A stretch of 13,515 nucleotides of DNA from an uncultured archaeon (GCA_964590575.1 CAZPWM010000086.1:1-13515), one strand, 5' to 3'. Counted from the stretch's first letter, positions 1-13,515 are shown. Made by a program: numbers and translations. The notes: generated by a model not told the origin, from the letters alone.

Positions 1-415
1 GGTAGATCAGACCCGGGAATTGCTCTGGTTCGTAAAGGGTGTTCTCAAGCTTCATTGCTGCGAGCTCGAGGTTTAGTTCAGCACCCAGACTTGCACTGGC
101 TACGATGTTCTGAACAACAATGATTGGTTTGCCGGTAATCTCAATTCCAGCTTCCTTAATGTTCTTGACAATCTTGTGAACTGCACGCTTTGCTTCTTTC
201 TCACTCTTCGCTCCAGTGCACACCATCTTACCTGAGTTGAAAATCAGTGTGGCTGTCTTGGGTTTCTTAAGACGGTACACTAGACCAGGGAATTGCTCGG
301 GGTCGAACTCGACGTTGGGCATTGTAGCTGCAATCTCATCGAGGTCGAGTCGCTGATTGAGAATAACTGAAGCAACAACGTTCTCTATCTTGGTCTTTGG
401 TTCTGGACGTGGCAT
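1..415 (-). CDS. tbp: TATA-box binding protein (3' end truncated by window edge)
   Basis: Manual translation from ATG at 415: MPRPEPKTKIENVVASVILNQRLDLDEIAATMPNVEFDPEQFPGLVYRLKKPKTATLIFNSGKMVCTGAKS...VQNIVASASLGAELNLELAAMKLENTLYEPEQFPGLIY. Both TBP repeats are present (NVVAS/NIVAS, PEQFPGL twice, LIFxSGKMVCTGAKS). Not in the ORF track because its stop lies outside the window. Confidence 0.98.
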   Translation of the reverse strand, partial: MPRPEPKTKIENVVASVILNQRLDLDEIAATMPNVEFDPEQFPGLVYRLKKPKTATLIFNSGKMVCTGAKSEKEAKRAVHKIVKNIKEAGIEITGKPIIVVQNIVASASLGAELNLELAAMKLENTLYEPEQFPGLIY

Positions 416-564: not shown

Positions 565-936
565 TCAACAACTGCAATCATCGCGCTTTATTACGATGAT
601 TTTTACCTTGACATCCTCAGCAATATCTCCAAACGCTTGAAGGAAATATCTAGAGGCTTCAATTAATCCTTTTTCTCCCTCGGATGTTAGATGGTAAACA
701 ATCTGTCTACCTTCTTTGCGTCCCTCAATGAGACCTCCTTTTTTCAATTCCTTTAGTGCTGGATAGATTGTGCCAGGAGTGGGCTTTGTACCTCTCCTCA
801 AAGCAATCTTCTCTGCTATCTGTTGCCCGTTCAATTCCTCTTTTTCAAGCTCCCACAGAATCTGAAATGTAAGGAGTCCTCTCATGTCGCAACAATCTGG
901 AGGACAACATCCTGCAGACTCTTCGGAGCCGGTCAT
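565..936 (-). CDS. PadR-like winged helix-turn-helix regulator with Cys-rich termini (putative As(III)/metal sensor)
   Basis: Core MRGLLTFQILWEL...LNGQQIAEKI...PGTIYPALKELKKGGLI...RQIVYHLTSEG matches the PadR pattern (G-x-I-Y-P-x-L; Y-x-L-T-x-x-G). N-terminal GCCPPDCCD and C-terminal DDCSC. Start placed at ATG 936 (MTGSEE, 123 aa), 26 nt from a TTTAAA box, which suggests a leaderless mRNA. Confidence 0.88.
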   Translation of the reverse strand: MTGSEESAGCCPPDCCDMRGLLTFQILWELEKEELNGQQIAEKIALRRGTKPTPGTIYPALKELKKGGLIEGRKEGRQIVYHLTSEGEKGLIEASRYFLQAFGDIAEDVKVKIIVIKRDDCSC

Positions 937-943
937 ACTGTAA

Positions 944-1003
944 TATCGGATGTCCGATACATTTAAATGTATATATAGGATGTCCAATATTGGACACCCG
1001 ATA
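944..1003. promoter_or_regulatory. Divergent promoter with three palindromic operator copies
   Basis: TATCGGA-TG-TCCGATA (944-959, perfect 7-2-7), TATAGGA-TG-TCCAATA (974-989) and TATTGGA-CA-CCCGATA (988-1003). The first two flank a perfect 16-bp palindrome ATACATTTAAATGTAT (957-972) that contains TTTAAA. Confidence 0.8.
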
Positions 1004-1017
1004 TAGATGGTGATTGA

Positions 1018-1149
1018 ATGACTGAAGACAAAGTTGCTGTTAAATGTGGAATACCGAATGGAACAAAGTCAAGAAGTTCATGTCAGTCGACATCATGTGG
1101 TGATAATCGTTTTTCAAATTCTAATCCAATGAAAATGGTGATTGTATGA
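1018..1149 (+). CDS. Small Cys-containing peptide (43 aa), unannotated, upstream of arsM
   Basis: GGTGA Shine-Dalgarno at 1009-1013 before ATG 1018. Translation MTEDKVAVKCGIPNGTKSRSSCQSTSCGDNRFSNSNPMKMVIV*. Its TGA (1147-1149) overlaps the arsM ATG (ATGA), as in translational coupling, and it fills the whole gap between promoter and arsM. Confidence 0.6.
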   Translation: MTEDKVAVKCGIPNGTKSRSSCQSTSCGDNRFSNSNPMKMVIV

Positions 1150-1958
1150 CAGAAATGAAAAGAGTCCGCGATATGAAGCCTGAGGAAATCAAAGAAGAAG
1201 TGCGAAAAGCCTACTCTCGTGTAGCAGAATATAACAGCGATGAAGGGATATCAGCTAATTGTTGCGACGAACCAGCTCAGAATCGATCAAGCTGCTGTAG
1301 CCCAGCTTCTGAAGCTAAGGTCACAAGATTGAATCTTGCTGATGCACTTGGCTATGACACAGAAAGAATGCCTGTTTCTGCCACGGAATCATTTGCTGGA
1401 TGCGGGAATCCTGTTGCACTTGCAAGTCTGAAAGAAGGTGAGGTTGTCCTTGACCTAGGCAGTGGAGCAGGTCTTGACATGTTCGTAGCAAGTAAGAAAG
1501 TCGGTGATGCCGGCAAAGTGATAGGTGTAGATATGACGCCTGCTATGATTGAAAAAGCAAAGAAAAATGCTGAGGAGTTCGGAATCACAAATGTAGATTT
1601 CCGCTTTGGCGACATTGAGGATATGCCGGTTGATGATAATTCAGTTGATGTAGTGATCAGTAATTGTGTCATTAATTTAGCTCCAAGTAAGGCAAAAGTC
1701 TTCCAAGAAGCCTTTAGAGTTTTGAAACCTGGTGGACGCATAATGGTATCTGATATTGTACTATCAAAGCCACTACCTAAGGAAGTGAGTGATGAGGTCA
1801 TCACATACACCAGCTGCATAGGTGGCGCAATTCTTGATGAGGAGTATCTACAACACATGAGAGATGCCGGTTTTGAGAATGTTAAGATAACCGACAAAGC
1901 TGGTGAGAGCCTGCATGGTGCATACAGCGCCTATGTTGCAGGTCGCAAACCTGAGTGA
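1146..1958 (+). CDS. arsM: Arsenite S-adenosylmethionine methyltransferase
   Basis: ArsM/AS3MT motifs: N-terminal CC pairs, GCGNP, SAM-binding VLDLGSGAGLD, GVDMT, VISNCVINL, RVLKPGGR and CIGGA. GGTGA SD upstream. Confidence 0.95.
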   Translation: MTEMKRVRDMKPEEIKEEVRKAYSRVAEYNSDEGISANCCDEPAQNRSSCCSPASEAKVTRLNLADALGYDTERMPVSATESFAGCGNPVALASLKEGEVVLDLGSGAGLDMFVASKKVGDAGKVIGVDMTPAMIEKAKKNAEEFGITNVDFRFGDIEDMPVDDNSVDVVISNCVINLAPSKAKVFQEAFRVLKPGGRIMVSDIVLSKPLPKEVSDEVITYTSCIGGAILDEEYLQHMRDAGFENVKITDKAGESLHGAYSAYVAGRKPE

Positions 1959-1972
1959 TAGGGTGAGGCTTT

Positions 1973-2785
1973 ATGGAAACCGAGGTCGATATTGAAATCA
2001 GTATGCAACATGTCACAGTACCCATCAGTGTGAATAGTCAAGGACCATTCATGTTTACTCTGGACACAGGCGCATCCACCACAACTCTCTCCAAGAAACT
2101 GGCTGAGCAGCTGGGAATCCCAACTAGAACAAGTGATAATCCTGATGCGCGTGGTATTGGAGGAGGGATTCCCACAGAATTTGCTGATGCCACAATTAGT
2201 CTTGGATCGCTTGAGTTTGAAAATGATGAGGTGTACGTTCTAGATCTTGAAGCAATCTTGCGTGGTACAGGAAATCGTGATGGTGTACTAGGATATACAA
2301 CCCTAAAACAATGCACGATGTCACTTAGCTATACCCATCGACGTTTCAAGATAACCAAGGGGTATTCGACCAAGGATGTCAACTGGAACAAATTTGACTA
2401 CATCAAAGATTCCCATCTTGTGGGAGTTCCCGTTCATATTAATGGGAAAGGACCCTATGACTTCGTTCTTGATACCGGGGCTGGAAATACCGTGGTGACT
2501 CCGGAGCTGGCTAAATCAATTGGTCTCGAAGCAAAACCCGTTCAAGGAATTGCTCGTGGTGTGGGTGGAGATATGCAATTAGAGCTAGCGGTAGCTGAAA
2601 CTCTCTCTGTGGGTGACGCAAAAATTTCGAATACTCAAGTAGTTGTTCTAGATCTTAGCAAGGTATCACCAAAGGGGAAATTGATTGAGCACGGAATCAT
2701 TGGCTATGATTTCCTGAGGAACTTTGAAACAGTCATTGATTACCCACAAAAACAATTTTCCTTCATTGATGAACGTAGTTCATAA
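1973..2785 (+). CDS. Two-domain retropepsin-like (clan AA) aspartic protease
   Basis: Tandem repeats, each with a catalytic motif, a flap and a distal hydrophobic-Gly motif: FTLDTGAS...ARGIGG...DGVLGY and FVLDTGAG...ARGVGG...HGIIGYDFL. SD GGTGAGG upstream, 14 nt after the arsM stop. No signal peptide visible. Confidence 0.9.
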   Translation: METEVDIEISMQHVTVPISVNSQGPFMFTLDTGASTTTLSKKLAEQLGIPTRTSDNPDARGIGGGIPTEFADATISLGSLEFENDEVYVLDLEAILRGTGNRDGVLGYTTLKQCTMSLSYTHRRFKITKGYSTKDVNWNKFDYIKDSHLVGVPVHINGKGPYDFVLDTGAGNTVVTPELAKSIGLEAKPVQGIARGVGGDMQLELAVAETLSVGDAKISNTQVVVLDLSKVSPKGKLIEHGIIGYDFLRNFETVIDYPQKQFSFIDERSS

Positions 2786-2798
2786 ACTTCGGAAGACA

Positions 2799-2824
2799 CA
2801 TAGGGCGCTATGATATTATTTTTT
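2799..2824 (+). terminator. Possible terminator after the arsM-protease operon
   Basis: Short hairpin CATAG-GGCG-CTATG (2799-2812) followed by ATATTATTTTTT. Oligo-T tracts terminate archaeal transcription. Confidence 0.35.
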
Positions 2825-2837
2825 CGTGGTTTTCGAG

Positions 2838-3674
2838 ATGAGTGAAGAAAGTACGTACCAGGGATTTGACGGCACCACAATGCTGTTACGGATCTGGAAA
2901 CCTGAAACAGAACACAAAGCTGTGGTTCTTGGAATTCACGGGTTGGGGTCTCATAGTGGGCTAATGGATTTCATGGCTGAGCAGTTCAAATCACGAGGAT
3001 TCACTTTCTATGCACCTGATATGCGCGGGTTTGGTACATTTCCAGGAAGAAAAGGACATGTAGAGAGTTTTGATGAATACATCGAAGACATGGAATCATT
3101 AGTAGCTTATCTTAAGCTAACGCATCACGACAGCAAACTGTTTCTATTTGGCCATTCACTTGGTGGGCTTCACGTAATTCGATATATTGCACATCATCCT
3201 GACGAAGCTGATGGCATTATGATTCCTTGTCCAGCAGTATCAGAGAAACTGAAAATGAGTGGGGCAACTAGAGCAATAGCAAAGCTACTTTCAAAGCTGA
3301 ATGCGAAGATATACTTCAGCAACGGTCTTGATTATGATCTACTTTCACGTAACCCTGAGGTAGTTAAAAGGAATCGAGAAGATCCTCTCAGATTCGACAA
3401 AGCTACTCCCCGTTATGGCGTCGAAGGACTCAAGGCGAGTGAAGAAGGATTCAATCTAGCAAGCCAGGTTACTGTGCCTGTTCTTGTTCAACAATCTGGA
3501 GATGATATGATTGTGGATCCTGAACGAAACAAGGAATTCTATGACAACATTGCCTCTAAGGACAAAACATGGAAACTTTATCCAGGTCTGTATCACGAGC
3601 CATTCCAAGAGGAAGGTGGTGATGAAGTCATAGCAGACTTATTTGATTGGCTAGATGAGAGAATGTTATCTTGA
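2838..3674 (+). CDS. Alpha/beta hydrolase, lysophospholipase/monoglyceride lipase (PldB-like) family
   Basis: HGLGSH oxyanion region, DMRGFG, nucleophile elbow GHSLGG, acid in GDDMIVD and His in LYHEPF. ATG 2838 (MSEES) preferred over GTG 2826. Confidence 0.92.
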   Translation: MSEESTYQGFDGTTMLLRIWKPETEHKAVVLGIHGLGSHSGLMDFMAEQFKSRGFTFYAPDMRGFGTFPGRKGHVESFDEYIEDMESLVAYLKLTHHDSKLFLFGHSLGGLHVIRYIAHHPDEADGIMIPCPAVSEKLKMSGATRAIAKLLSKLNAKIYFSNGLDYDLLSRNPEVVKRNREDPLRFDKATPRYGVEGLKASEEGFNLASQVTVPVLVQQSGDDMIVDPERNKEFYDNIASKDKTWKLYPGLYHEPFQEEGGDEVIADLFDWLDERMLS

Positions 3675-3882: not shown

Positions 3883-5808
3883 ATGAGCAAGACACACAAA
3901 GCGTTTGCATTTCTCTTCTTGGTTCTATTCGTGGTTAGTATAGCCACCCCAGTTGCATTTAATGAAACCCTATTTTCAAATGCAATCCTAGAGACATCAT
4001 TTGAACCAGCTGCGACCAACTACGTTGTGGATGTAAGAGTCTATAACAACCTACTAGCATTCAATGATGATGACTTTGAGTTCAGAGTCAGGAATGGTTC
4101 AGTGCCCCTAAATGGCGCTTCTGTGCGACTCTACAACGTAACAACTGGTCTTTTCACAGGTTTTGAAGATGACACAGATGGAAACGGTTATGCTTGGTTC
4201 TCCAACTTACCACAGGGTATCTATCAGTGGAACGTTTCACATCCATCCGATACAGTCACTCCACAAAAAACTGGTCAGATTTTATCCGATGGTCCGGAAG
4301 TTATTGTTGCGATTCTATTCGGCAATCTCGATTGGAAAAATGACGACGACGATCTAAATGCTACCTTAACTGACATTGAAGGTAGACCTGCTCAAAACCT
4401 TAACTTTTCTATCCATCGTACTAGTGACAACTCGATTTGGGCGCAGACTGTAGTGACGAATGGACGAGCAGATTTTTCAAATCTCCCGGAGGATAACTAC
4501 ACATGGAAGGTTTCGGTACTCGGCGATCCGACCTATGATGGTTATCTTTTGGACTTTGGGACTGTTGAGTCCGATGGCACACAGCTTCTATGCACCACAC
4601 CAGAACAGAGTATTGGCGCACTAACTGGAAGTCCTGAATATCTTGATATGGAAATCTTCACTTACTATGAAACTAGCTTGTTTCCTATTGTGGGCGCAGA
4701 TGTTGAGGTGACCTTTAAAAATGGTTCATTATACGACTCAAAGGTTACTCCCACAAATGGTACTGTGATCTTTGTAGACCTTCCTGTCGAATACATCAAC
4801 TGGACTGTAAGCTACATGGGACAACCAGTTGGTCTGGGCAATTACTCCTATGATTTAACTGCAGTTGCTTCAGATTTTAGAGACCCAATCATCACTGGGC
4901 CTGATGATCTTCAAGTCTTGATTGACACAGAGAATGTAACCCTAACTTGGACCGTCGAAGATGAACATCCAAGCTCGATCAAAGTATGGGTTGATGGTAT
5001 TCTCAATATCACAACCTCTTGGGTAAACACAACCTTTGACTATGTATACAACGTGAGTGCTTCATTCCCTGCTTTCATTATTGGTTACTACGAGATCAAG
5101 CTGGTTGCTACTGACCAGAACATGAATTTCGCAGAGGATATTGTTTCACTTCGTTTCTATGAGAATGTGACCCCCGTCATTGAAGGACCTGATCCAATAG
5201 AATTCATCTTCACGGAAACAGGCTATTCACTTTCTTGGAATGTCACAGACGATTATCCAAATATGTATAAAGTTCACGACAACGACGAGCCATTTGCAAA
5301 TGGAATAATCAATCCTGATGAACCGGTCATCAGAATTAGTCTTGATGGTCTTTCTATTGGAATCCATAATTTTACACTTTATGTAAATGACACAAGCGGA
5401 AACAATGCAATGAACAGCGTATTGGTTACTGTTCTTGAAGATACCATTTTTCCAGTGATCACCTTCACTCCTGCAGACATATACTATGCACAAGGAGATA
5501 GACACCAAGTCTACAACTGGACAGCTGTTGACGATTCCAAGGATTACTATGTTATCCTTGTTGATGGTGAGCTTGTGCAAACTGCAGACTGGACAACCTC
5601 AAACATTGAATTCGATTTCTCAGGATTACTCCAAGGGCAACACAATGTGACTTTGAAGGTCTATGACCTCGGAGGTAATATGGCTGAATCTACCGTGAAG
5701 GTATATGTTTCTGCTTCAACCGCTATGGTATACCTCACCTCAGCAGCTCTTATCTCGGTAGGAGTACTAGCTCTTATAGGAATAATCTGGTTTGTGAGAT
5801 ATCGTTAG
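3883..5808 (+). CDS. Membrane-anchored cell-surface glycoprotein with tandem beta-sandwich (Cna-B/prealbumin-like and Ig-like) repeats
   Basis: N-terminal signal peptide (MSKTHK plus hydrophobic stretch). Three units ending NGxxxFxxLPxxxxxWxVS, then three PxI...WxxxD...(D..GN) Ig-like units. About twenty N-x-S/T sequons. C-terminal TM helix with RYR tail. Confidence 0.85.
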   Translation: MSKTHKAFAFLFLVLFVVSIATPVAFNETLFSNAILETSFEPAATNYVVDVRVYNNLLAFNDDDFEFRVRNGSVPLNGASVRLYNVTTGLFTGFEDDTDGNGYAWFSNLPQGIYQWNVSHPSDTVTPQKTGQILSDGPEVIVAILFGNLDWKNDDDDLNATLTDIEGRPAQNLNFSIHRTSDNSIWAQTVVTNGRADFSNLPEDNYTWKVSVLGDPTYDGYLLDFGTVESDGTQLLCTTPEQSIGALTGSPEYLDMEIFTYYETSLFPIVGADVEVTFKNGSLYDSKVTPTNGTVIFVDLPVEYINWTVSYMGQPVGLGNYSYDLTAVASDFRDPIITGPDDLQVLIDTENVTLTWTVEDEHPSSIKVWVDGILNITTSWVNTTFDYVYNVSASFPAFIIGYYEIKLVATDQNMNFAEDIVSLRFYENVTPVIEGPDPIEFIFTETGYSLSWNVTDDYPNMYKVHDNDEPFANGIINPDEPVIRISLDGLSIGIHNFTLYVNDTSGNNAMNSVLVTVLEDTIFPVITFTPADIYYAQGDRHQVYNWTAVDDSKDYYVILVDGELVQTADWTTSNIEFDFSGLLQGQHNVTLKVYDLGGNMAESTVKVYVSASTAMVYLTSAALISVGVLALIGIIWFVRYR

Positions 5809-7392: not shown

Positions 7393-9993
7393 TTGAGGGA
7401 GTGTGGACCTTTGGGAAAAATCATCCAACCGAAAACAATCGCGTGCCTTGTTGCAATTTCAGTCCTTATCTTTCAACTAGGTCTCGGAGTCACAGCTCAG
7501 GAATATGTTGAGCCTGTTGACCTTCTAATAATAACGCACGAAGATTTTGTTTCAGAATGTGAGCGTCTAGCCTCTTGGAAGAACAGCACTGGGATGAGGT
7601 CTGCAGTCGTCACTTGGCAGGAGCTTACTCACTATACAGGAGTAGATTTGCCAGAGAAAATTAAGTTAGGAATTTTAGACTGGTTAATTCGTTATCGAAT
7701 TAAATATGTCCTCCTAATGGGTGATAGTGATGTATTTCCGGTGAGATACTTAACTATGGACTGGAACTGTCACACTCCCGAGCCAGACAAAATCGATTCG
7801 TCTGACATAGTTTTCAGCGCGTCTGATCTTTACTATGCGGATGTGTATAACGCTAGTGAAGATTTTGCTGATTGGGATTTTGATAAGAATGGTTACTTTG
7901 GTGAACTACTAGGCGCTTGGAAATTCACGGGGATTGCACCTATTAATTATGACCGTTTGGATATGTATCCAGATGTTGCTGTTGGAAGAGTACCAGCTTC
8001 CACACTAGAGGAAGCCAGGAACTATGTTGACAAAGTGATTAGTTATGAAACTAATGCTGACATTCAATCTCCAGGTTGGCTGACCAATTCGCTAATAGTT
8101 GCCAATGGTGTGAATGACCTTGACCAGTATCCCTTGTCTCAGGATATAGAAGCTGACCTCGCATCTTTTGGGATGACGAACAAACTGTTGTATGATGTTG
8201 ATTTGCTAAATCTCCCAAGACCCTACACTTATCGACCAAATAATATTGTAATCACCAATGAACTAAACTATGGTAAGGGCTATGTCAACTTTGCAGGTCA
8301 TGGAAGTCCTGGCCATCTCCCTTCTTTTGGGCCTGATTCCTATGATTACAGCATCTGGGTATCTCATTCCTTAGGCTTTCAGTTCAACACATCCCAAAAC
8401 GCGAAATCTGCATTGTGCTTTGGAAAATCTGGATATCCTTCAGTTGGCAACATGAATGGCGATAACGCATCTGACATCTACTTCTTTGACTGGAATGGAA
8501 CTCTTCACACAGCCCAATCAATAGACCCCTATGGATCAGGATACTACATCAATCCATACGAATATAGCTGGGATCTCTATCCATTTTTTGCAGCAAATCC
8601 AGGTTTTCCCAAAATTGGTGACTTCAATGGCGATTCACGAGATGATGTTGTTCAAGTGAACATAACGAGTGGAGATGTATATGTCTGTACTGCGAATGCT
8701 GGAAATCCTTGGTTTACAGCAGTATCAACATGGATGACTGGATTTCTTACAAGCTCCTCCTCTTGGTATGTTGGCGATTTCAACGGTGATATGTTCTATG
8801 ACATCGCCTATCGAGATGGCACTCAGTTTCAAGTTGCCCGTTCTTCAGGAACTAGCTTTACACCAATAATAACAATGTTTGATGGAATAGGTGCAAATGA
8901 AAACATTGTCGTGGGTGATTATGATGGTGATAACAATGAGGATATAGCTCTGATTGATGCTTCTTCAGGCAATGTGCGGGTTGCCATATCTCATGGTCAA
9001 TTGATGGAGATTGATACTAGCTTCAATTATGGTGGCTTCTGTCCAGGTGATATCTCCCGCACAGCAAGAGTCCTCTCTGCTGATTGCCAAGGTGGTGGAT
9101 ACGATAGCCTCATCCTCTTTCTAAGAGATTCAAGGATTGGAGGGAAAAGATCAGATGCAACAGGCACCAATTGGGAACTTGGTGATGTCTATGTACTCAA
9201 CTCTGATGGAATAGGTTGGTGTGCTTGCAGTGTCTGGCATGAACAGTTTTGCCTCGGTAATCAGCAACCTGCTATTGGAGATTTCGACGCAGATGGAAAA
9301 GATGACATTGTCCTATTCAATAGATATGATCGGATTGATCCCTTTGATAATCTCATGAACAAAGATATGTATCCGATAATTTTCGCAGCATCTTGCAGTA
9401 CAGCTGAATACGCAATAATACCACCGTGGCATGACTATGAGGATGCGACTAGAACAGACCAAGTTGGAAGTAACAATGGGAACATCTTTCCTCTAAGAAT
9501 GTTTCACGGAATAGAAGTCCATCTTGCTCCAAGACCCTTCGCATTGCAATCTATTGATACAGGGTGCATTGCAGAACGATTTCTTGTTCAAGATAACACA
9601 AGTGGAGCAGTAGCATATATTGGGGGAGTTGAGGTCCTACAAAATTATGTGAATGATCTCAACAGATATTTCGTTGATGCTTATACTGGTGGAGGAAATA
9701 TTCTTGGAGATATGTGGAATGAGGCATTAGAGTCTTTTCTAACTGCAAAAGGTTATGGGCGAGGTGAGCATTCTCTATATGCATCAGATTGGGCTGATGT
9801 GGCAAGTTATCACCATCCTTCAAAAGTAACATTGTTTGGAGATCCATCCTTGAGAGTCTTTGACACACCTGACCCAACAACACCTGTTCCTGTGATAATT
9901 CCTCCAATCTTCGTGGTCATAATCGGAGGCGGTTTTATCGCAGCTGTTGTTGTTGTTGTCTTTGCTGTTCGTAGATTTCGTCTTAGACCTTAA
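7393..9993 (+). CDS. Membrane-anchored peptidase C25 (gingipain-like cysteine protease) with inserted FG-GAP/VCBS repeat domain
   Basis: Signal peptide. C25 motifs LLIIT, YVLLMGD, SDLYYAD, PDVAVGRVP, NFAGHG (His303), IFAASCST (Cys668), AERFL...GAVAYIG, LGD and LFGDPSL. Six GD(F/Y)xGDxxxD-type repeats lie between His and Cys. Pro/Thr linker, TM helix and RRFRLRP tail at the C-terminus. Start may be TTG 7411. Confidence 0.9.
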   Translation: MRECGPLGKIIQPKTIACLVAISVLIFQLGLGVTAQEYVEPVDLLIITHEDFVSECERLASWKNSTGMRSAVVTWQELTHYTGVDLPEKIKLGILDWLIRYRIKYVLLMGDSDVFPVRYLTMDWNCHTPEPDKIDSSDIVFSASDLYYADVYNASEDFADWDFDKNGYFGELLGAWKFTGIAPINYDRLDMYPDVAVGRVPASTLEEARNYVDKVISYETNADIQSPGWLTNSLIVANGVNDLDQYPLSQDIEADLASFGMTNKLLYDVDLLNLPRPYTYRPNNIVITNELNYGKGYVNFAGHGSPGHLPSFGPDSYDYSIWVSHSLGFQFNTSQNAKSALCFGKSGYPSVGNMNGDNASDIYFFDWNGTLHTAQSIDPYGSGYYINPYEYSWDLYPFFAANPGFPKIGDFNGDSRDDVVQVNITSGDVYVCTANAGNPWFTAVSTWMTGFLTSSSSWYVGDFNGDMFYDIAYRDGTQFQVARSSGTSFTPIITMFDGIGANENIVVGDYDGDNNEDIALIDASSGNVRVAISHGQLMEIDTSFNYGGFCPGDISRTARVLSADCQGGGYDSLILFLRDSRIGGKRSDATGTNWELGDVYVLNSDGIGWCACSVWHEQFCLGNQQPAIGDFDADGKDDIVLFNRYDRIDPFDNLMNKDMYPIIFAASCSTAEYAIIPPWHDYEDATRTDQVGSNNGNIFPLRMFHGIEVHLAPRPFALQSIDTGCIAERFLVQDNTSGAVAYIGGVEVLQNYVNDLNRYFVDAYTGGGNILGDMWNEALESFLTAKGYGRGEHSLYASDWADVASYHHPSKVTLFGDPSLRVFDTPDPTTPVPVIIPPIFVVIIGGGFIAAVVVVVFAVRRFRLRP
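8446..9324 (+). repeat. Six FG-GAP/VCBS-like Ca-binding protein repeats
   Basis: GNMNGDNASDI, GDFNGDSRDDV, GDFNGDMFYDI, GDYDGDNNEDI, ADCQGGGYDSL (degenerate) and GDFDADGKDDI, most followed by a VxVxxSxG-like strand. Confidence 0.85.
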
Positions 9994-10302: not shown

Positions 10303-11187
10303 TTATTGCGTAGCTTGATTATTATTGTCCTCTTCTCCAGTGTCCAATGGGCTGATGAGGAGCCCCTCTGAGGTGGCTTTCAACACAACACGTTTCTTTA
10401 ATCCTGCAAGGCGTCTGATAGTTTCAGGAATCACCATTCGACCTTTTGCATCGATTTCACTGATATCGCCATAGAGCGTGTGTTTCTGACCTTCGATGAG
10501 CCCATCTCTTATTCTTAGAACTCTATCTGCATATTCTGCAACTCTCGGGTTATGAGTGACATTAATGACAGTAGTTCCAAATTCCTTGTTTGTCTTCTTC
10601 AGAGCCTCCATCACCATCTCAGTTGTTTCGCTATCTAGCTCACCGGTGATCTCATCTCCGAGGAGAAGTTCTGGATTGTTGGCAAGAGCTACACAGATTG
10701 CGCATCTCTGATTCTCGCCTCCTGACATCTGATTTGGCTTGTGATTAGCTCTAGGACCGAGTCCCATGGTGTCAAGCAGCATGCTCGCTCTTTCGTTAGA
10801 TAGTCTTGTTGGAGCCCCCGCGAGTTTCATAGGTAGGGTGACATTTTTGAAGGCTGAAAGGCCTGGTACTAAATTGCCGACCTGCCAGATGAACCCGACC
10901 TTCTGTCGTCTATATAGCATTGATCTTCTATCATCCAGAATCGAAACACTGTGCCCATCATACAAAATTGCTCCTGCTGTAGGTCTATCCAAAGCACCAA
11001 GCATTTTAAGCAATGTTGATTTTCCGGAACCACTTGGGCCAATTATTGAAAGGAACTCGCCTTCGCTAACTTCAAAATCAACACCCCTGAGGGCAATGAC
11101 CTCTTTTTGGCCTCGTTTGTAGACCTTCATCAGGTCTCTGACAACAATTTTGTATTCATCTGCGATTTCATCTAGATTTTCTGACAT
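10303..11187 (-). CDS. ABC transporter ATP-binding protein (LolD/MacB type) with C-terminal AbrB/SpoVT-like domain
   Basis: Walker A GPSGSGKST, Q-loop GFIWQ, signature MSGGENQR, Walker B/D-loop LLLGDEITGELD and H-loop VTHN. C-terminal EIDAKGRMVIPETIRRLAGL...VVL...EGLLISP. Start set at ATG 11187 (MSENLD) after SD GGTGA, which overlaps the permease stop. Confidence 0.93.
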   Translation of the reverse strand: MSENLDEIADEYKIVVRDLMKVYKRGQKEVIALRGVDFEVSEGEFLSIIGPSGSGKSTLLKMLGALDRPTAGAILYDGHSVSILDDRRSMLYRRQKVGFIWQVGNLVPGLSAFKNVTLPMKLAGAPTRLSNERASMLLDTMGLGPRANHKPNQMSGGENQRCAICVALANNPELLLGDEITGELDSETTEMVMEALKKTNKEFGTTVINVTHNPRVAEYADRVLRIRDGLIEGQKHTLYGDISEIDAKGRMVIPETIRRLAGLKKRVVLKATSEGLLISPLDTGEEDNNNQATQ

Positions 11188-11192
11188 GATAT

Positions 11193-13515
11193 TCACCCTG
11201 TGTATTGAATTTCCTCTGCGATGTTGATTTTTAATGCTCGAGATACAACAAAATAGGTAGCTAAGAGCGATACTATTACAGCTGTACCTATTACTCCTGA
11301 AAGTAATAACCATGGAACTATTAGATTCACAGGAAGCCTTGTCCACAACTGAGTGGTTGCTATTCCTATATATAACATAGGGATTTCTTTCAACAAGAAT
11401 GCAAGTGCTGTGCCGATACCTCCACCAATAAGTGTAGCAAGTAACAATCCCGTAGATGAATCAACAAGTGATGCAACTACCATCGATTTTCTTTCTGCTC
11501 CAAGTGCCCTGAGAACGGAGAATTGCTTTCTCAGACCTCTAACTCTTACAGTTGTGACAATTACAATTCCAAATGTAAGATAGATGAGTGAGAAAATGAT
11601 ATTGAGCGTGTATGCTCCAAAGATAGACTGAGTCGCGCGTGAATCTAGAACTTCGTCAATCGATTCTTGTGCAGCTTCAACAGAATTGAAACTAAATGGT
11701 GCAATCCTGTAGATGTCATTCATTGCTTGTGTATAATTGGCTCCTGGTTCAAGATCAACGTAAAATTTTGTGACCTGTGTTGTGTTAATCCAGTTATGTA
11801 AAAGGCTAATATCCATGATAAGAAAGTCAGATAAGTCTGACTCACCTGGGAAGTAGGTTTGATATCCATCTAGACCATTTTTCATGATATCGATAATTGT
11901 GCATTCTGTTTCATTATACCAATCAGAGCTAAAGACCTGCAAATCAAGGAATGGTGAGTATTGCGGAATGGCTATACGTGTGATTGGGTCCACTGTAAAA
12001 TGACTCACTGGTTTAAATGTTGTAATGATGTTGATGCCATTTTCAATTGATTCACTCAATTTCGGAATGGACACGTGCGGTACATTATACGATGTGAAGT
12101 AGTCAAGCCAAAATGCTGTTTCGATCCATGTGTCTGGTTGGACTCCAAACACTGAGATTGAACGATTGATATTGCTTCCACCACTATAAGCATAGGCATT
12201 CCAGTATTGAACGTATCCTGTAACTCGAAGCATAGGACTGACTTGAGCAACTCCGTTCACTGCGGTTATATTCTGAATTAGATCCATGGTGACATTACTC
12301 AGGATTGGATCAACATCCACAGCAATGTCCGCTCCTGTTTCAAAATAAAATAGATGTTTCATATGTTCACTTCCAGTTGTAGCTGAGAGTGAAGCAAATA
12401 GACCAGCTATAAAGACCATCGCGATAAACATTGTTCCGGTCGCTTCAGATTTTTTGAACATATGTACTGTTCTTGAGATGAGTCTTGTACCTACAATCAG
12501 AGATGGGTTTTTTATCCTAGAAAGAATCTTTGATTTTATTGCTGCAGTGCTTCTTGATAACATTCGGGTAGAGAAAAATAGAAACATCGCCATCATTGGA
12601 ATGATTGTTGCAGCGAAGAATGTAGATGCTGTTGCTGAAAGACCAGTCATTGCGTAAAGAACCATCATCCGCAACAGAAGATATCCTGTAATACCTACAA
12701 TCAGCATATCAATTGCAGGACTACCCATCTTTTCTGATTGAGTAAGAATCTCTCCTTCCAGAGCACTATGAGCTTCAGTTGGTGTCATTAGCAGAGCCTT
12801 CACTGCTGATGGTAAAGCCACAATAAGACCAACTATAAATGAGAAAGAGAAGACAATGATTATGGCAATTGGCTGAAGAAGCATTGTGAATCCTGAGAGT
12901 TGATCCAGATTAAACACAAGTAACTCCCTTACAGAACCTGAAAGGACTGCCGCTAAAACGCCTGTGAAAATAGCACCGATGCTTCCAATTATACCAGTTG
13001 TGACTGCACTACTTAGGACCCAAGAGAATGCCTGTATCCCTGATGAACCTCTGGTCTTGATGGTGCCAACATCTTTTCGTTGTTCTTCAGACAGGAGTTT
13101 GGAGTTGTATTGGATTAACATCACCCCCATTATTATTGAGGGGATTGAAAAAGCAATAGCTATCCCTCTGACACTTAATGACCAGATTGCAAATTCTGTA
13201 ACCGCATCCCTTAATCTGAAGGAATCATAATTAATGACTCCATAGGGCAAGGTTTCTTGTTCGATCTGCTTCTTAACATTGGTTAGGGACTCTATCATCA
13301 TTTCAGCAGTATTTTGAACAATACCTGTCCTGTCAAACTTCACCCAGATGCGTTTTTGTATTCCATACCTGTCATCATGTGGCAATGCTTCAAACAGTGT
13401 TTCAAGAGTTTCAGGGGTAGTAATAATCTGAAGGTATGTCACTTCCGGCGCATTCCAATACGGTTCGAACATGTAGATGTTTGAGATGAAAGTGCCTGCA
13501 ATGATGAATGTTTTT
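11193..13515 (-). CDS. FtsX/MacB-like ABC transporter permease (5' end beyond window)
   Basis: Two FtsX-type motifs (EQRKDVGTIKTRG; LRKQFSVLRALGA), many TM helices and a large extracellular domain starting ETGADI. The frame stays open upstream of 13472 to the window edge (KTFIIAGTFISNIY). Confidence 0.9.
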   Translation of the reverse strand, partial: KTFIIAGTFISNIYMFEPYWNAPEVTYLQIITTPETLETLFEALPHDDRYGIQKRIWVKFDRTGIVQNTAEMMIESLTNVKKQIEQETLPYGVINYDSFRLRDAVTEFAIWSLSVRGIAIAFSIPSIIMGVMLIQYNSKLLSEEQRKDVGTIKTRGSSGIQAFSWVLSSAVTTGIIGSIGAIFTGVLAAVLSGSVRELLVFNLDQLSGFTMLLQPIAIIIVFSFSFIVGLIVALPSAVKALLMTPTEAHSALEGEILTQSEKMGSPAIDMLIVGITGYLLLRMMVLYAMTGLSATASTFFAATIIPMMAMFLFFSTRMLSRSTAAIKSKILSRIKNPSLIVGTRLISRTVHMFKKSEATGTMFIAMVFIAGLFASLSATTGSEHMKHLFYFETGADIAVDVDPILSNVTMDLIQNITAVNGVAQVSPMLRVTGYVQYWNAYAYSGGSNINRSISVFGVQPDTWIETAFWLDYFTSYNVPHVSIPKLSESIENGINIITTFKPVSHFTVDPITRIAIPQYSPFLDLQVFSSDWYNETECTIIDIMKNGLDGYQTYFPGESDLSDFLIMDISLLHNWINTTQVTKFYVDLEPGANYTQAMNDIYRIAPFSFNSVEAAQESIDEVLDSRATQSIFGAYTLNIIFSLIYLTFGIVIVTTVRVRGLRKQFSVLRALGAERKSMVVASLVDSSTGLLLATLIGGGIGTALAFLLKEIPMLYIGIATTQLWTRLPVNLIVPWLLLSGVIGTAVIVSLLATYFVVSRALKINIAEEIQYTG

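Follow-up and report, generated by a model that had tools for sequence, protein, structure and literature searches.

Members of the ArsR/SmtB family, such as R773 ArsR, CgArsR, and AfArsR, are small dimeric winged-helix repressors that regulate their own genes and bind As(III) through cysteine thiols. These thiols are held at different places in different members, including the N- or C-terminal tails. Single-domain members of the PadR family recognize ligands as different as drugs and phenolic acids, and respond to metals or redox signals. Arsenic methylation by anaerobic sediment archaea affects the mobility and toxicity of arsenic, and we know of no experimental work on how archaea switch on arsM, the gene of As(III) S-adenosylmethionine methyltransferase. 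The general kind, a PadR-type metalloid repressor, has a bacterial precedent: according to the title of Zhang, Wu, Tang, Chen, Rosen, and Zhao (2022, Environ Microbiol 24:5139, doi 10.1111/1462-2920.16147), as cited in PMC11566425, a PadR-family repressor (PadRars, Azospirillum halopraeferens Au 4) controls a trivalent metalloid resistance operon, and its operator is quoted in PMC12817078 as CCTTGA-N11-TCAAGG. The present analysis concerns a stretch of 13,515 nt (GCA_964590575.1, CAZPWM010000086.1; hereafter the window, with coordinates given as positions in it) from an Asgard archaeon of a Thorarchaeota-type genus, in which a gene for a cysteine-rich PadR-type regulator is divergent from arsM.

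The core of this locus is interpreted as a two-gene cassette, in which a PadR-subfamily-2 repressor and arsM diverge from a short promoter and trivalent arsenicals would release the repressor. Repression, ligand, thiol chemistry, and promoter geometry are what we infer, and the reading as a whole is given a probability of roughly 0.65. Comparisons were made with 60 related genomes and 29 relatives' loci, and in a wider scan of 80 loci.

Family assignment of the regulator

The regulator, a protein of 123 aa, is encoded on the minus strand at 565-936, with the ATG start codon at 934-936 and the stop codon at 565-567. The longest open reading frame (ORF) spans 565-987 and begins with TTG; the alignment of orthologues places the conserved start at the ATG at 936. 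The protein matches the Pfam family PadR (PF03551) over residues 26-91 with 41.3 bits at a cut-off of 27, and it ranks ninth among the 10 PadR matches in a scan of the genome (42.3 bits). Its score against the NCBIfam ArsR/SmtB model NF033788 is 30.3 bits, under the cut-off of 55, and the ArsR-type Pfam models (HTH_5/HTH_20) gave no match at E<=0.1. In a profile search of the PDB based on 14 orthologues, the 15 best matches (TA0346, Rv3488, RosR, and others) all have the PadR fold, as taken from their PDB titles or Foldseek descriptions; chains of the ArsR family appear only at E about 0.5. With the ArsR encoded in the same genome, BLASTP aligned just a 42-residue stretch (residues 55-96, 33% identity).

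The AlphaFold2 (AF2) model points in the same direction. Its core (residues about 20-100) has a predicted local distance difference test (pLDDT) score above 90 and consists of helices at residues 18-32, 37-48, and 54-66, strands at 70-75 and 78-83, and a helix at 85-106. This corresponds to a winged helix-turn-helix (wHTH) with a single long C-terminal helix, the layout of PadR subfamily 2. The top Foldseek matches of the model are PadR proteins, relatives of the regulator are publicly annotated as "PadR family transcriptional regulator", and a cluster look-up of distant family members returned one generic PadR name. Classification as ArsR is ruled out by Pfam, NCBIfam, the PDB profile search, and the BLASTP comparison. 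The regulator belongs to PadR and not to ArsR/SmtB, on which Pfam, the PDB profile, AF2, and Foldseek agree, and the PadR-type core described in a first-pass annotation of the window is borne out by the model scores.

PadR genes with generic cores are also present on bacterial plasmids and match the regulator just from residue 19-20. On the one enterobacterial plasmid inspected, from Klebsiella (L125), a weak PadR relative is located directly after chrA (chromate efflux), beside an arsH-arsR-arsB-arsC cluster, and so provides a further example of PadR in the context of oxyanion resistance. Its match is confined to the winged-helix core and does not count as evidence for orthology.

Methyltransferase

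The arsM gene (1146-1958, plus strand) encodes a protein of 270 aa that scores 304.8 bits against the NCBIfam model NF008823 (cut-off 263), and the best PDB matches of this protein are solved ArsM enzymes. It contains the S-adenosylmethionine motif VLDLGSGAG as well as N-terminal CC pairs at residues 39-40 and 50-51. Cys86 (GCG) and Cys174 (SNC) align with cysteines in both solved chains compared, and Cys224 aligns with a cysteine (GEC) in the 4kw7/5jx7/6cx6 chain and is one column off in 5evj. In the Cyanidioschyzon enzyme, the As(III)-binding residues are Cys72, Cys174, and Cys224; Cys72 and Cys174 can be read in the alignment with the 4kw7/5jx7/6cx6 chain. With a score above the cut-off and a cysteine at all three motif positions, the protein is, judged by its sequence, a true member of the arsenite methyltransferase family.

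Promoter region and operators

The regulator gene and the first ORF of the arsM operon, a micro-ORF described below, are separated by 81 nt. This intergenic region is rich in palindromes and contains a 17-nt unit in three copies. Operator O1 (TATCGGA-TG-TCCGATA, 943-959), a perfect 7-2-7 inverted repeat, is placed on the regulator side of the putative TATA element, ahead of the regulator start. O2 (973-989) and O3 (987-1003) overlap each other and are placed on the operon side of this element, ahead of the first start codon there. The A/T palindrome ATACATTTAAATGTAT (957-972; 16 nt, a perfect 8+8 repeat with the halves ATACATTT and AAATGTAT) constitutes a putative archaeal TATA/B recognition element (BRE) region, potentially shared by both directions, as suggested by archaeal promoter geometry. 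Because the operators are placed between this region and each start, a bound dimer would block both promoters. The ATG of the regulator is 6 nt from the first operator, so its mRNA is probably leaderless or nearly so.

The intergenic regions of many relatives have the same layout (operator, TTTAAAT element, operator(s), start codon), and the operator core TATTGG-N4-CCAATA is found in loci labelled Hermodarchaeota, Bathyarchaeota, Methanomethylicota, Hydrothermarchaeales, Methanosarcinaceae, and Methanoperedens. When the core pattern was counted with up to 2 mismatches in the 80 related loci, 190 copies were found in the 24,000 nt upstream of the regulator versus 47 in the other 518,135 nt, which corresponds to an 87-fold enrichment. 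At least two copies are present in 75 of these loci. A loose scan of the window's genome gave 54 matches versus 15-30 in three shuffles, and this locus is the only place in the genome with three operators within 60 nt. A wider operator regulon was considered and set aside: the 54 loose matches include no other cluster, and nothing is concluded about further targets.

Conservation of the regulator-arsM pair

At a threshold of E<=1e-25, an orthologue of the regulator is present in 35 of the 60 relatives, and each of these 35 genomes also carries arsM (cut by the contig end in G019). Among the 25 relatives without the regulator, five have an ArsM-like gene (one of them below the cut-off) and 20 have neither gene. 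Neither the regulator nor arsM is present in three genomes from the same family that are 92-97% complete. As related genomes are not independent, this co-occurrence is taken as a pattern and not as a statistic.

The orientation of the two genes is preserved as well. arsM is divergent from the regulator in all 29 relatives' loci and in 74 of the 80 wider loci (one, L104, with an arsM fragment only); the paired loci come from metagenome-assembled genomes (MAGs) labelled Thorarchaeota, Hermodarchaeota, Bathyarchaeota, Methanomethylicota, Hydrothermarchaeales, and Methanosarcinaceae. In L104, a Bathyarchaeota chromosome, the arsM match is limited to residues 42-116 and stands beside an intact regulator; a decayed arsM is possible.

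The outer neighbours vary by lineage and include glycosidase, DHODH, CbiQ, TGT, thiolase, DinB-type, and flavin reductase genes. No consistent third cassette gene was found among the neighbours listed for 28 diverse loci, of which 30 ORFs were scanned with Pfam; the sole recurrences were two each of Flavin_Reduct, CbiQ, DinB-type, and FMN_red. Since the neighbours differ between lineages, the unit is best described as a two-gene cassette of regulator and arsM. The first-pass annotation had proposed an arrangement that also included a micropeptide and a protease. The neighbourhood search recovered the regulator-arsM pair across archaeal lineages, but the micro-ORF and the linkage of the protease to arsM turned out to be limited to the genus.

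Cysteine arm and proposed mechanism

The putative metalloid-binding site is an N-terminal cysteine arm, C10-C11-P-P-D-C15-C16 (codons at 889-909, minus strand), which occupies residues 10-16 immediately N-terminal to the first helix. A C-terminal tail, C121-S-C123, is encoded at 568-576 (minus strand). C10, C11, C15, and C16 are invariant in the 14 aligned orthologues, and the motif CC[PA]PxCCDMRG is present in 67 of the 80 loci, which come from public MAGs. In some public gene calls (104-108 aa) the start is set at Met18 and the arm is missed, so the evidence from codons is of particular value. At each cysteine codon of the arm, both TGT and TGC are freely used, and all four proline codons occur; such synonymous variation argues that the arm is translated and under purifying selection.

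In distant lineages the arm varies (e.g., CCPEVPDCC, CCTENCCPPDCC, and others), with the cysteine preceding DMRG retained, and the wider family has members with a single cysteine, or none, ahead of DMRG. Among its 150 best representatives, at least 36 have a cysteine directly before D-M/L-R/K-G and at least 19 have CC; these counts are lower bounds, as many representatives are fragments. The C-terminal CxC is found in most same-genus orthologues and is variable or absent in other lineages, some of which have a cysteine in the last helix (YFC) or at the extreme C-terminus instead.

According to the proposed mechanism, the regulator, presumably a dimer, would bind the three palindromes of 16-17 bp with the core TATTGG-N4-CCAATA. 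These flank the palindromic TATA element and would cover the expected transcription start regions on both sides, from which it is proposed that the regulator shuts off its own gene together with the arsM operon. The flexible N-terminal arm CCPPDCC would act as the sensor; the C-terminal CxC may contribute in this genus, and the cysteine in the last helix may do so in other lineages. A trivalent arsenical (As(III) and/or methylarsenite, possibly Sb(III)) would be bound by three thiols, the arsenical-bound repressor would leave the DNA, and ArsM would be made. The regulator is probably an arsenic switch that is not built on ArsR. Comparative evidence gives good support to a cysteine-armed regulator outside ArsR that is dedicated to arsM, and the mechanism is plausible.

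Micro-ORF and duplication of the arsM 5' end

The arsM operon begins with a cysteine-containing micro-ORF of 43 codons (1018-1149, plus strand). GGTGAT precedes it by 3 nt, and it ends in an ATGA shared with the start of arsM. Of 30 loci (the 29 relatives' loci and the window), 24 have the micro-ORF; it is lacking in three same-genus loci whose intergenic region is ~80 nt long and in the three loci of other genera. The 24 copies contain no stop codon in frame 0 versus 66 and 122 in the other frames, which indicates that the frame is under selection. A GGTG-type ribosome-binding site always precedes the micro-ORF, and its stop overlaps the next start by 4 nt in 22 of the 24 loci. The conserved parts of the product are SC-Q-x-S-x-C, with a pair of cysteines, and the C-terminus NPxKxVV. 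Most likely, the micro-ORF is translated and, as a leader, coupled in translation to the ORF that comes after it.

Its origin may be connected with the neighbouring gene. A 29-nt direct repeat on the plus strand spans the ribosome-binding site and start of the micro-ORF (copy 1, 998-1026) as well as those of arsM (copy 2, 1126-1154), the two copies being 79% identical. In six relatives (L010, L011, L014, L020, L025, and L034), the micro-ORF is followed by a second small ORF, of 48-56 aa, ahead of arsM. This ORF clearly repeats the first ~50 residues of ArsM with their CC motif (hhalign probability 99%, E 6e-18) and stops short of the methyltransferase domain. The 5' end of arsM seems to undergo partial tandem duplication readily, and the micro-ORF may have arisen from an earlier event of this kind. 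A direct comparison of the micro-ORF with the N-terminus of ArsM gave an hhalign probability of 6.6%, and with the second ORF of 41%. Homology to the ArsM N-terminus, not significant in the profile comparison, was kept as a possibility only, on account of the 29-nt repeat and the clear second copies in the relatives.

A decaying, functionless relic of the arsM 5' duplication, open merely for ribosome read-through and re-initiation at arsM, would be consistent with the repeat over both start regions, the second ORFs copied from ArsM, and the ATGA overlap. The identity of the micro-ORF in relatives to that of the window is also low (about 38-54% by tblastn, versus 52-85% for ArsM). However, the similarity of the micro-ORF to the ArsM N-terminus and to the second ORF is weak, and the two cysteines and the C-terminal motif are kept throughout the genus. 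A relic is accordingly a strong contender at somewhat less than even odds. Alternatively, the small cysteine ORFs (the 43-codon one and, in the six relatives, the second ORF) might encode working, stand-alone As(III)-binding peptides, born by repeated partial tandem duplication of the arsM 5' end and produced along with ArsM, that hand arsenite to ArsM or buffer it; this is rather doubtful. If true, the peptides would be archaeal equivalents, on a very small scale, of metallochaperones like ArsD, and the birth of genes from the sensor arm of an enzyme would be visible.

Transcription and signal specificity

Four metatranscriptome runs of sediment gave contigs that cover arsM, with ~95% identity to the window. 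The longest (2,205 nt, 1061-3265) spans arsM, the protease gene that follows it, and half of a hydrolase gene. The cover of the regulator gene is low. The word TTAAATGT at 1040-1047, which repeats part of the promoter palindrome, is located near the boundary of contigs at 1061; this boundary could reflect an internal start, strain variation, or an assembly effect.

Several observations weigh against the interpretation of regulator and arsM as an arsenical-responsive cassette. Six of the 80 loci have the regulator without an adjacent arsM. In two of them (L117 and L118, labelled Methanobacteriota and Methanoperedens), the regulator family and the operator face a gene of FMN_red, presumably the Pfam family of ArsH, and such a related partner speaks for the arsenic reading; in the remaining four the neighbours are unrelated. 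Conversely, arsM is present in five of the 25 relatives lacking the regulator, beside other types of regulator. The cysteine arm (pLDDT <50, a flexible tail) and the C-terminal tail are both of low confidence and disordered in the AF2 model, so the binding geometry cannot be read from it, and conservation does not extend to the C-terminal CxC. Specificity for arsenic does not follow from a cluster of cysteines, and Rv3488, one of the best structural matches, is linked to cadmium. Finally, the contigs of three metatranscriptome runs share 1061, within the micro-ORF, as their exact start, and 742-1060 is covered by no contig; the micro-ORF may be off the main transcript in that strain, or the boundary may result from assembly. 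Contigs of this kind indicate presence, not transcript ends or a single transcript, and DNA carry-over in RNA libraries is possible.

Some of these points would also fit a regulator that represses arsM via the operators while its cysteines respond to thiol/redox stress or to a thiophilic metal other than arsenic (Cd, Hg, Cu(I), Zn), so that ArsM would belong to a general response. The chemistry of cysteine arms is unspecific, RosR (a redox-linked archaeal regulator) and Rv3488 are among the closest solved relatives, and the wider family has members with one or no cysteine ahead of DMRG. Nevertheless, such a general response is unlikely: the partner in 74 of the 80 loci, in distant lineages, is ArsM, a protein above the curated cut-off; the regulator orthologue occurs among the 60 relatives only in genomes with arsM; and neither a metal transporter nor a redox enzyme is consistently linked to the pair. 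Release of the repressor by trivalent arsenicals is the preferred interpretation.

Aspartic protease and the wider module

A gap of 14 nt (1959-1972, containing the ribosome-binding site GGTGAGG) separates arsM from the gene of a two-domain, tandem retropepsin-like aspartic protease of 270 aa (1973-2785, plus strand). Pfam Asp_protease_2 matches the protein in two stretches, each half contains a DTGA motif, and D31 and D167 are invariant in 13 of 13 sequences. The AF2 model is bilobal, with a mean pLDDT of 88, and its Foldseek matches comprise a Bacteroides endopeptidase (9iy9), pepsins, and tethered HIV protease dimers. By motif and predicted bilobal fold, the protein would be a single-chain enzyme of clan AA, compact and pepsin-like. 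It has no obvious signal peptide and is apparently cytoplasmic.

Next after arsM comes the protease gene in 23 of the 26 relatives' loci whose sequence continues past arsM, as well as in 21 of the 80 wider loci. It is encoded in all 27 genomes of the same genus; elsewhere it is found in 2 of 33 relatives, on a contig other than that of arsM. This genus-limited linkage makes the protease a genus-level synteny partner of arsM. The arsM-protease junction is bridged by contigs from all four metatranscriptome runs, and the two genes are likely co-transcribed. Within the arsenic circuit, the protease is most likely a passenger.

The first-pass annotation had combined arsenic methylation with a thiol peptide and proteolysis into one regulon. 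Its Cys-rich, non-ArsR regulator is indeed conserved beside arsM, but its extension to peptide and protease, both genus-limited, is weakly supported. A single arsenic regulon in which the peptide binds As(III) and the protease clears arsenic-damaged proteins is improbable: the short gap with its ribosome-binding site, the kept gene order, the presence of the protease throughout the genus, the bridging contigs, and the conserved frame of the micro-ORF with its two cysteines would agree with it, but the protease of the two relatives outside the genus is off the contig of arsM, other lineages have unrelated genes or none after arsM, the micro-ORF is missing in 6 of 30 loci (three of them same-genus), and we know of no arsenic system that uses an aspartic protease.

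Other arsenic genes and other regulators of arsM

Another contig of the genome encodes acr3 (291.9 bits, cut-off 282.8) followed by a canonical ArsR of 98 aa with a CQC motif (HTH_5, 46 bits); the pair is located at G000:C78:11768-12730 and L119:2522-2818. Efflux in this organism thus seems to be controlled by ArsR, and methylation by the PadR-type protein. A further PadR-family gene is found ~2.5 kb upstream of acr3 (G000:C78:9088-9306). The proposal of a non-ArsR arsenic response, made in the first-pass annotation, holds for the regulator of this locus; as a description of the organism it is qualified by the canonical acr3-arsR pair, and its novelty is reduced by the precedent for a PadR metalloid repressor. 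ArsC of either type was not found with PF03960 and TIGR02691 in the genome, which is 91% complete, so that absence is not shown. This agrees with a remark in PMC10060404 on Asgard lineages that lack arsC genes while having acr3 and arsM.

Four Asgard relatives with arsM but without the PadR-type regulator have five arsM loci beside other regulator genes. A CC-rich ORF with an AbrB/MazE domain (HgcC-like) is directly upstream of arsM in L122 and L123. In L121, a gene of the HxlR type with an FCCSD motif diverges from arsM; in L124, such a gene is found ~0.9 kb upstream, on the far side of a DUF169 gene. L120 has a TrmB gene and a CMD/AhpD-like gene beside arsM. The AbrB/MazE, HxlR, and TrmB regulators have the same genomic role next to arsM as the PadR type but unrelated DNA-binding folds, which points to repeated, independent recruitment. 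This suggests that different folds were recruited to arsM several times (PadR; AbrB-, HxlR-, and TrmB-type in sister genomes, with three of the genes being cysteine-rich).

Remaining features of the window

The divergent regulator, the palindrome-rich promoter, and the three-ORF operon with its ATGA overlap and 14-nt gap were all found where the first-pass annotation had placed them. The lack of an adjacent efflux or reductase gene was confirmed as well, none being recognised among the window ORFs of >=80 aa or those scanned with Pfam. On the other side of the regulator, a TATA-binding-protein-like gene (2-415, minus strand) was named from a reading of its translation. The protease gene is followed by that of an alpha/beta hydrolase (2826-3674, plus strand; Hydrolase_4/lysophospholipase-like, Pfam Hydrolase_4 E 9.7e-66). 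The hydrolase also comes after the protease in the same genus and is probably a syntenic neighbour outside the arsenic circuit.

Two large probable surface proteins are encoded at 3883-5808 and 7393-9993, each with a hydrophobic stretch at its N- and C-terminal end. N-x-S/T sequons abound in one of them, which contains a CarboxypepD_reg domain, and the other combines a Peptidase_C25 (gingipain-like) domain with FG-GAP repeats. The gene at 10303-11346 (minus strand) probably encodes an ABC-type ATPase, as judged from Walker-type motifs read by eye, and the C-terminal end of its product resembles an AbrB/SpoVT-type DNA-binding swapped hairpin (GRMVIPETIRR...). It adjoins the gene of a multi-pass membrane protein of 759 aa, permease-like in appearance.

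Comparison with known systems

The present analysis adds the evidence that the micro-ORF is kept open, the history of duplication at the arsM 5' end, the restriction of the protease to the genus level, the table of co-occurrence, the separate acr3-arsR pair, and the metatranscriptome contigs. Full-text searches found no literature linking PadR with arsM or with arsenic in archaea. The locus would represent a compact circuit in which a protein of 123 aa acts through an operator of 16 bp on a single target gene. Its conservation reaches from Asgard archaea as far as MAGs with the labels Bathyarchaeota, Methanosarcinaceae, and Methanoperedens. The protein and its operator could provide parts for an arsenic biosensor with a specificity different from that of ArsR.

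As far as the title and the quoted operator of PadRars allow a comparison, that protein resembles the regulator described here in belonging to the PadR family, in being tied to metalloid-related genes, and in having an inverted repeat as its operator, a putative one in the present case. PadRars is, however, bacterial, whereas the target here is arsM alone, behind a putative archaeal TATA-type promoter. The operators also differ (CCTTGA-N11-TCAAGG versus TATTGG-N4-CCAATA).

Among proteins of solved structure, TA0346 (3elk), Rv3488 (5zhc), RosR (6ez1), and LmrR share with the regulator both the fold and the length class (wHTH and one C-terminal helix). The match to TA0346 begins at profile residue 18 (chain residue 11), i.e., past the arm of the regulator. 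ArsR/SmtB proteins belong to a different fold family, but the varied positions of their As(III) thiols parallel the variable positions of the cysteines within the PadR-type regulator family. Likewise, the suggested recruitment of different regulators to arsM on several occasions has a parallel in the As(III) sites that are known to have evolved convergently within ArsR.

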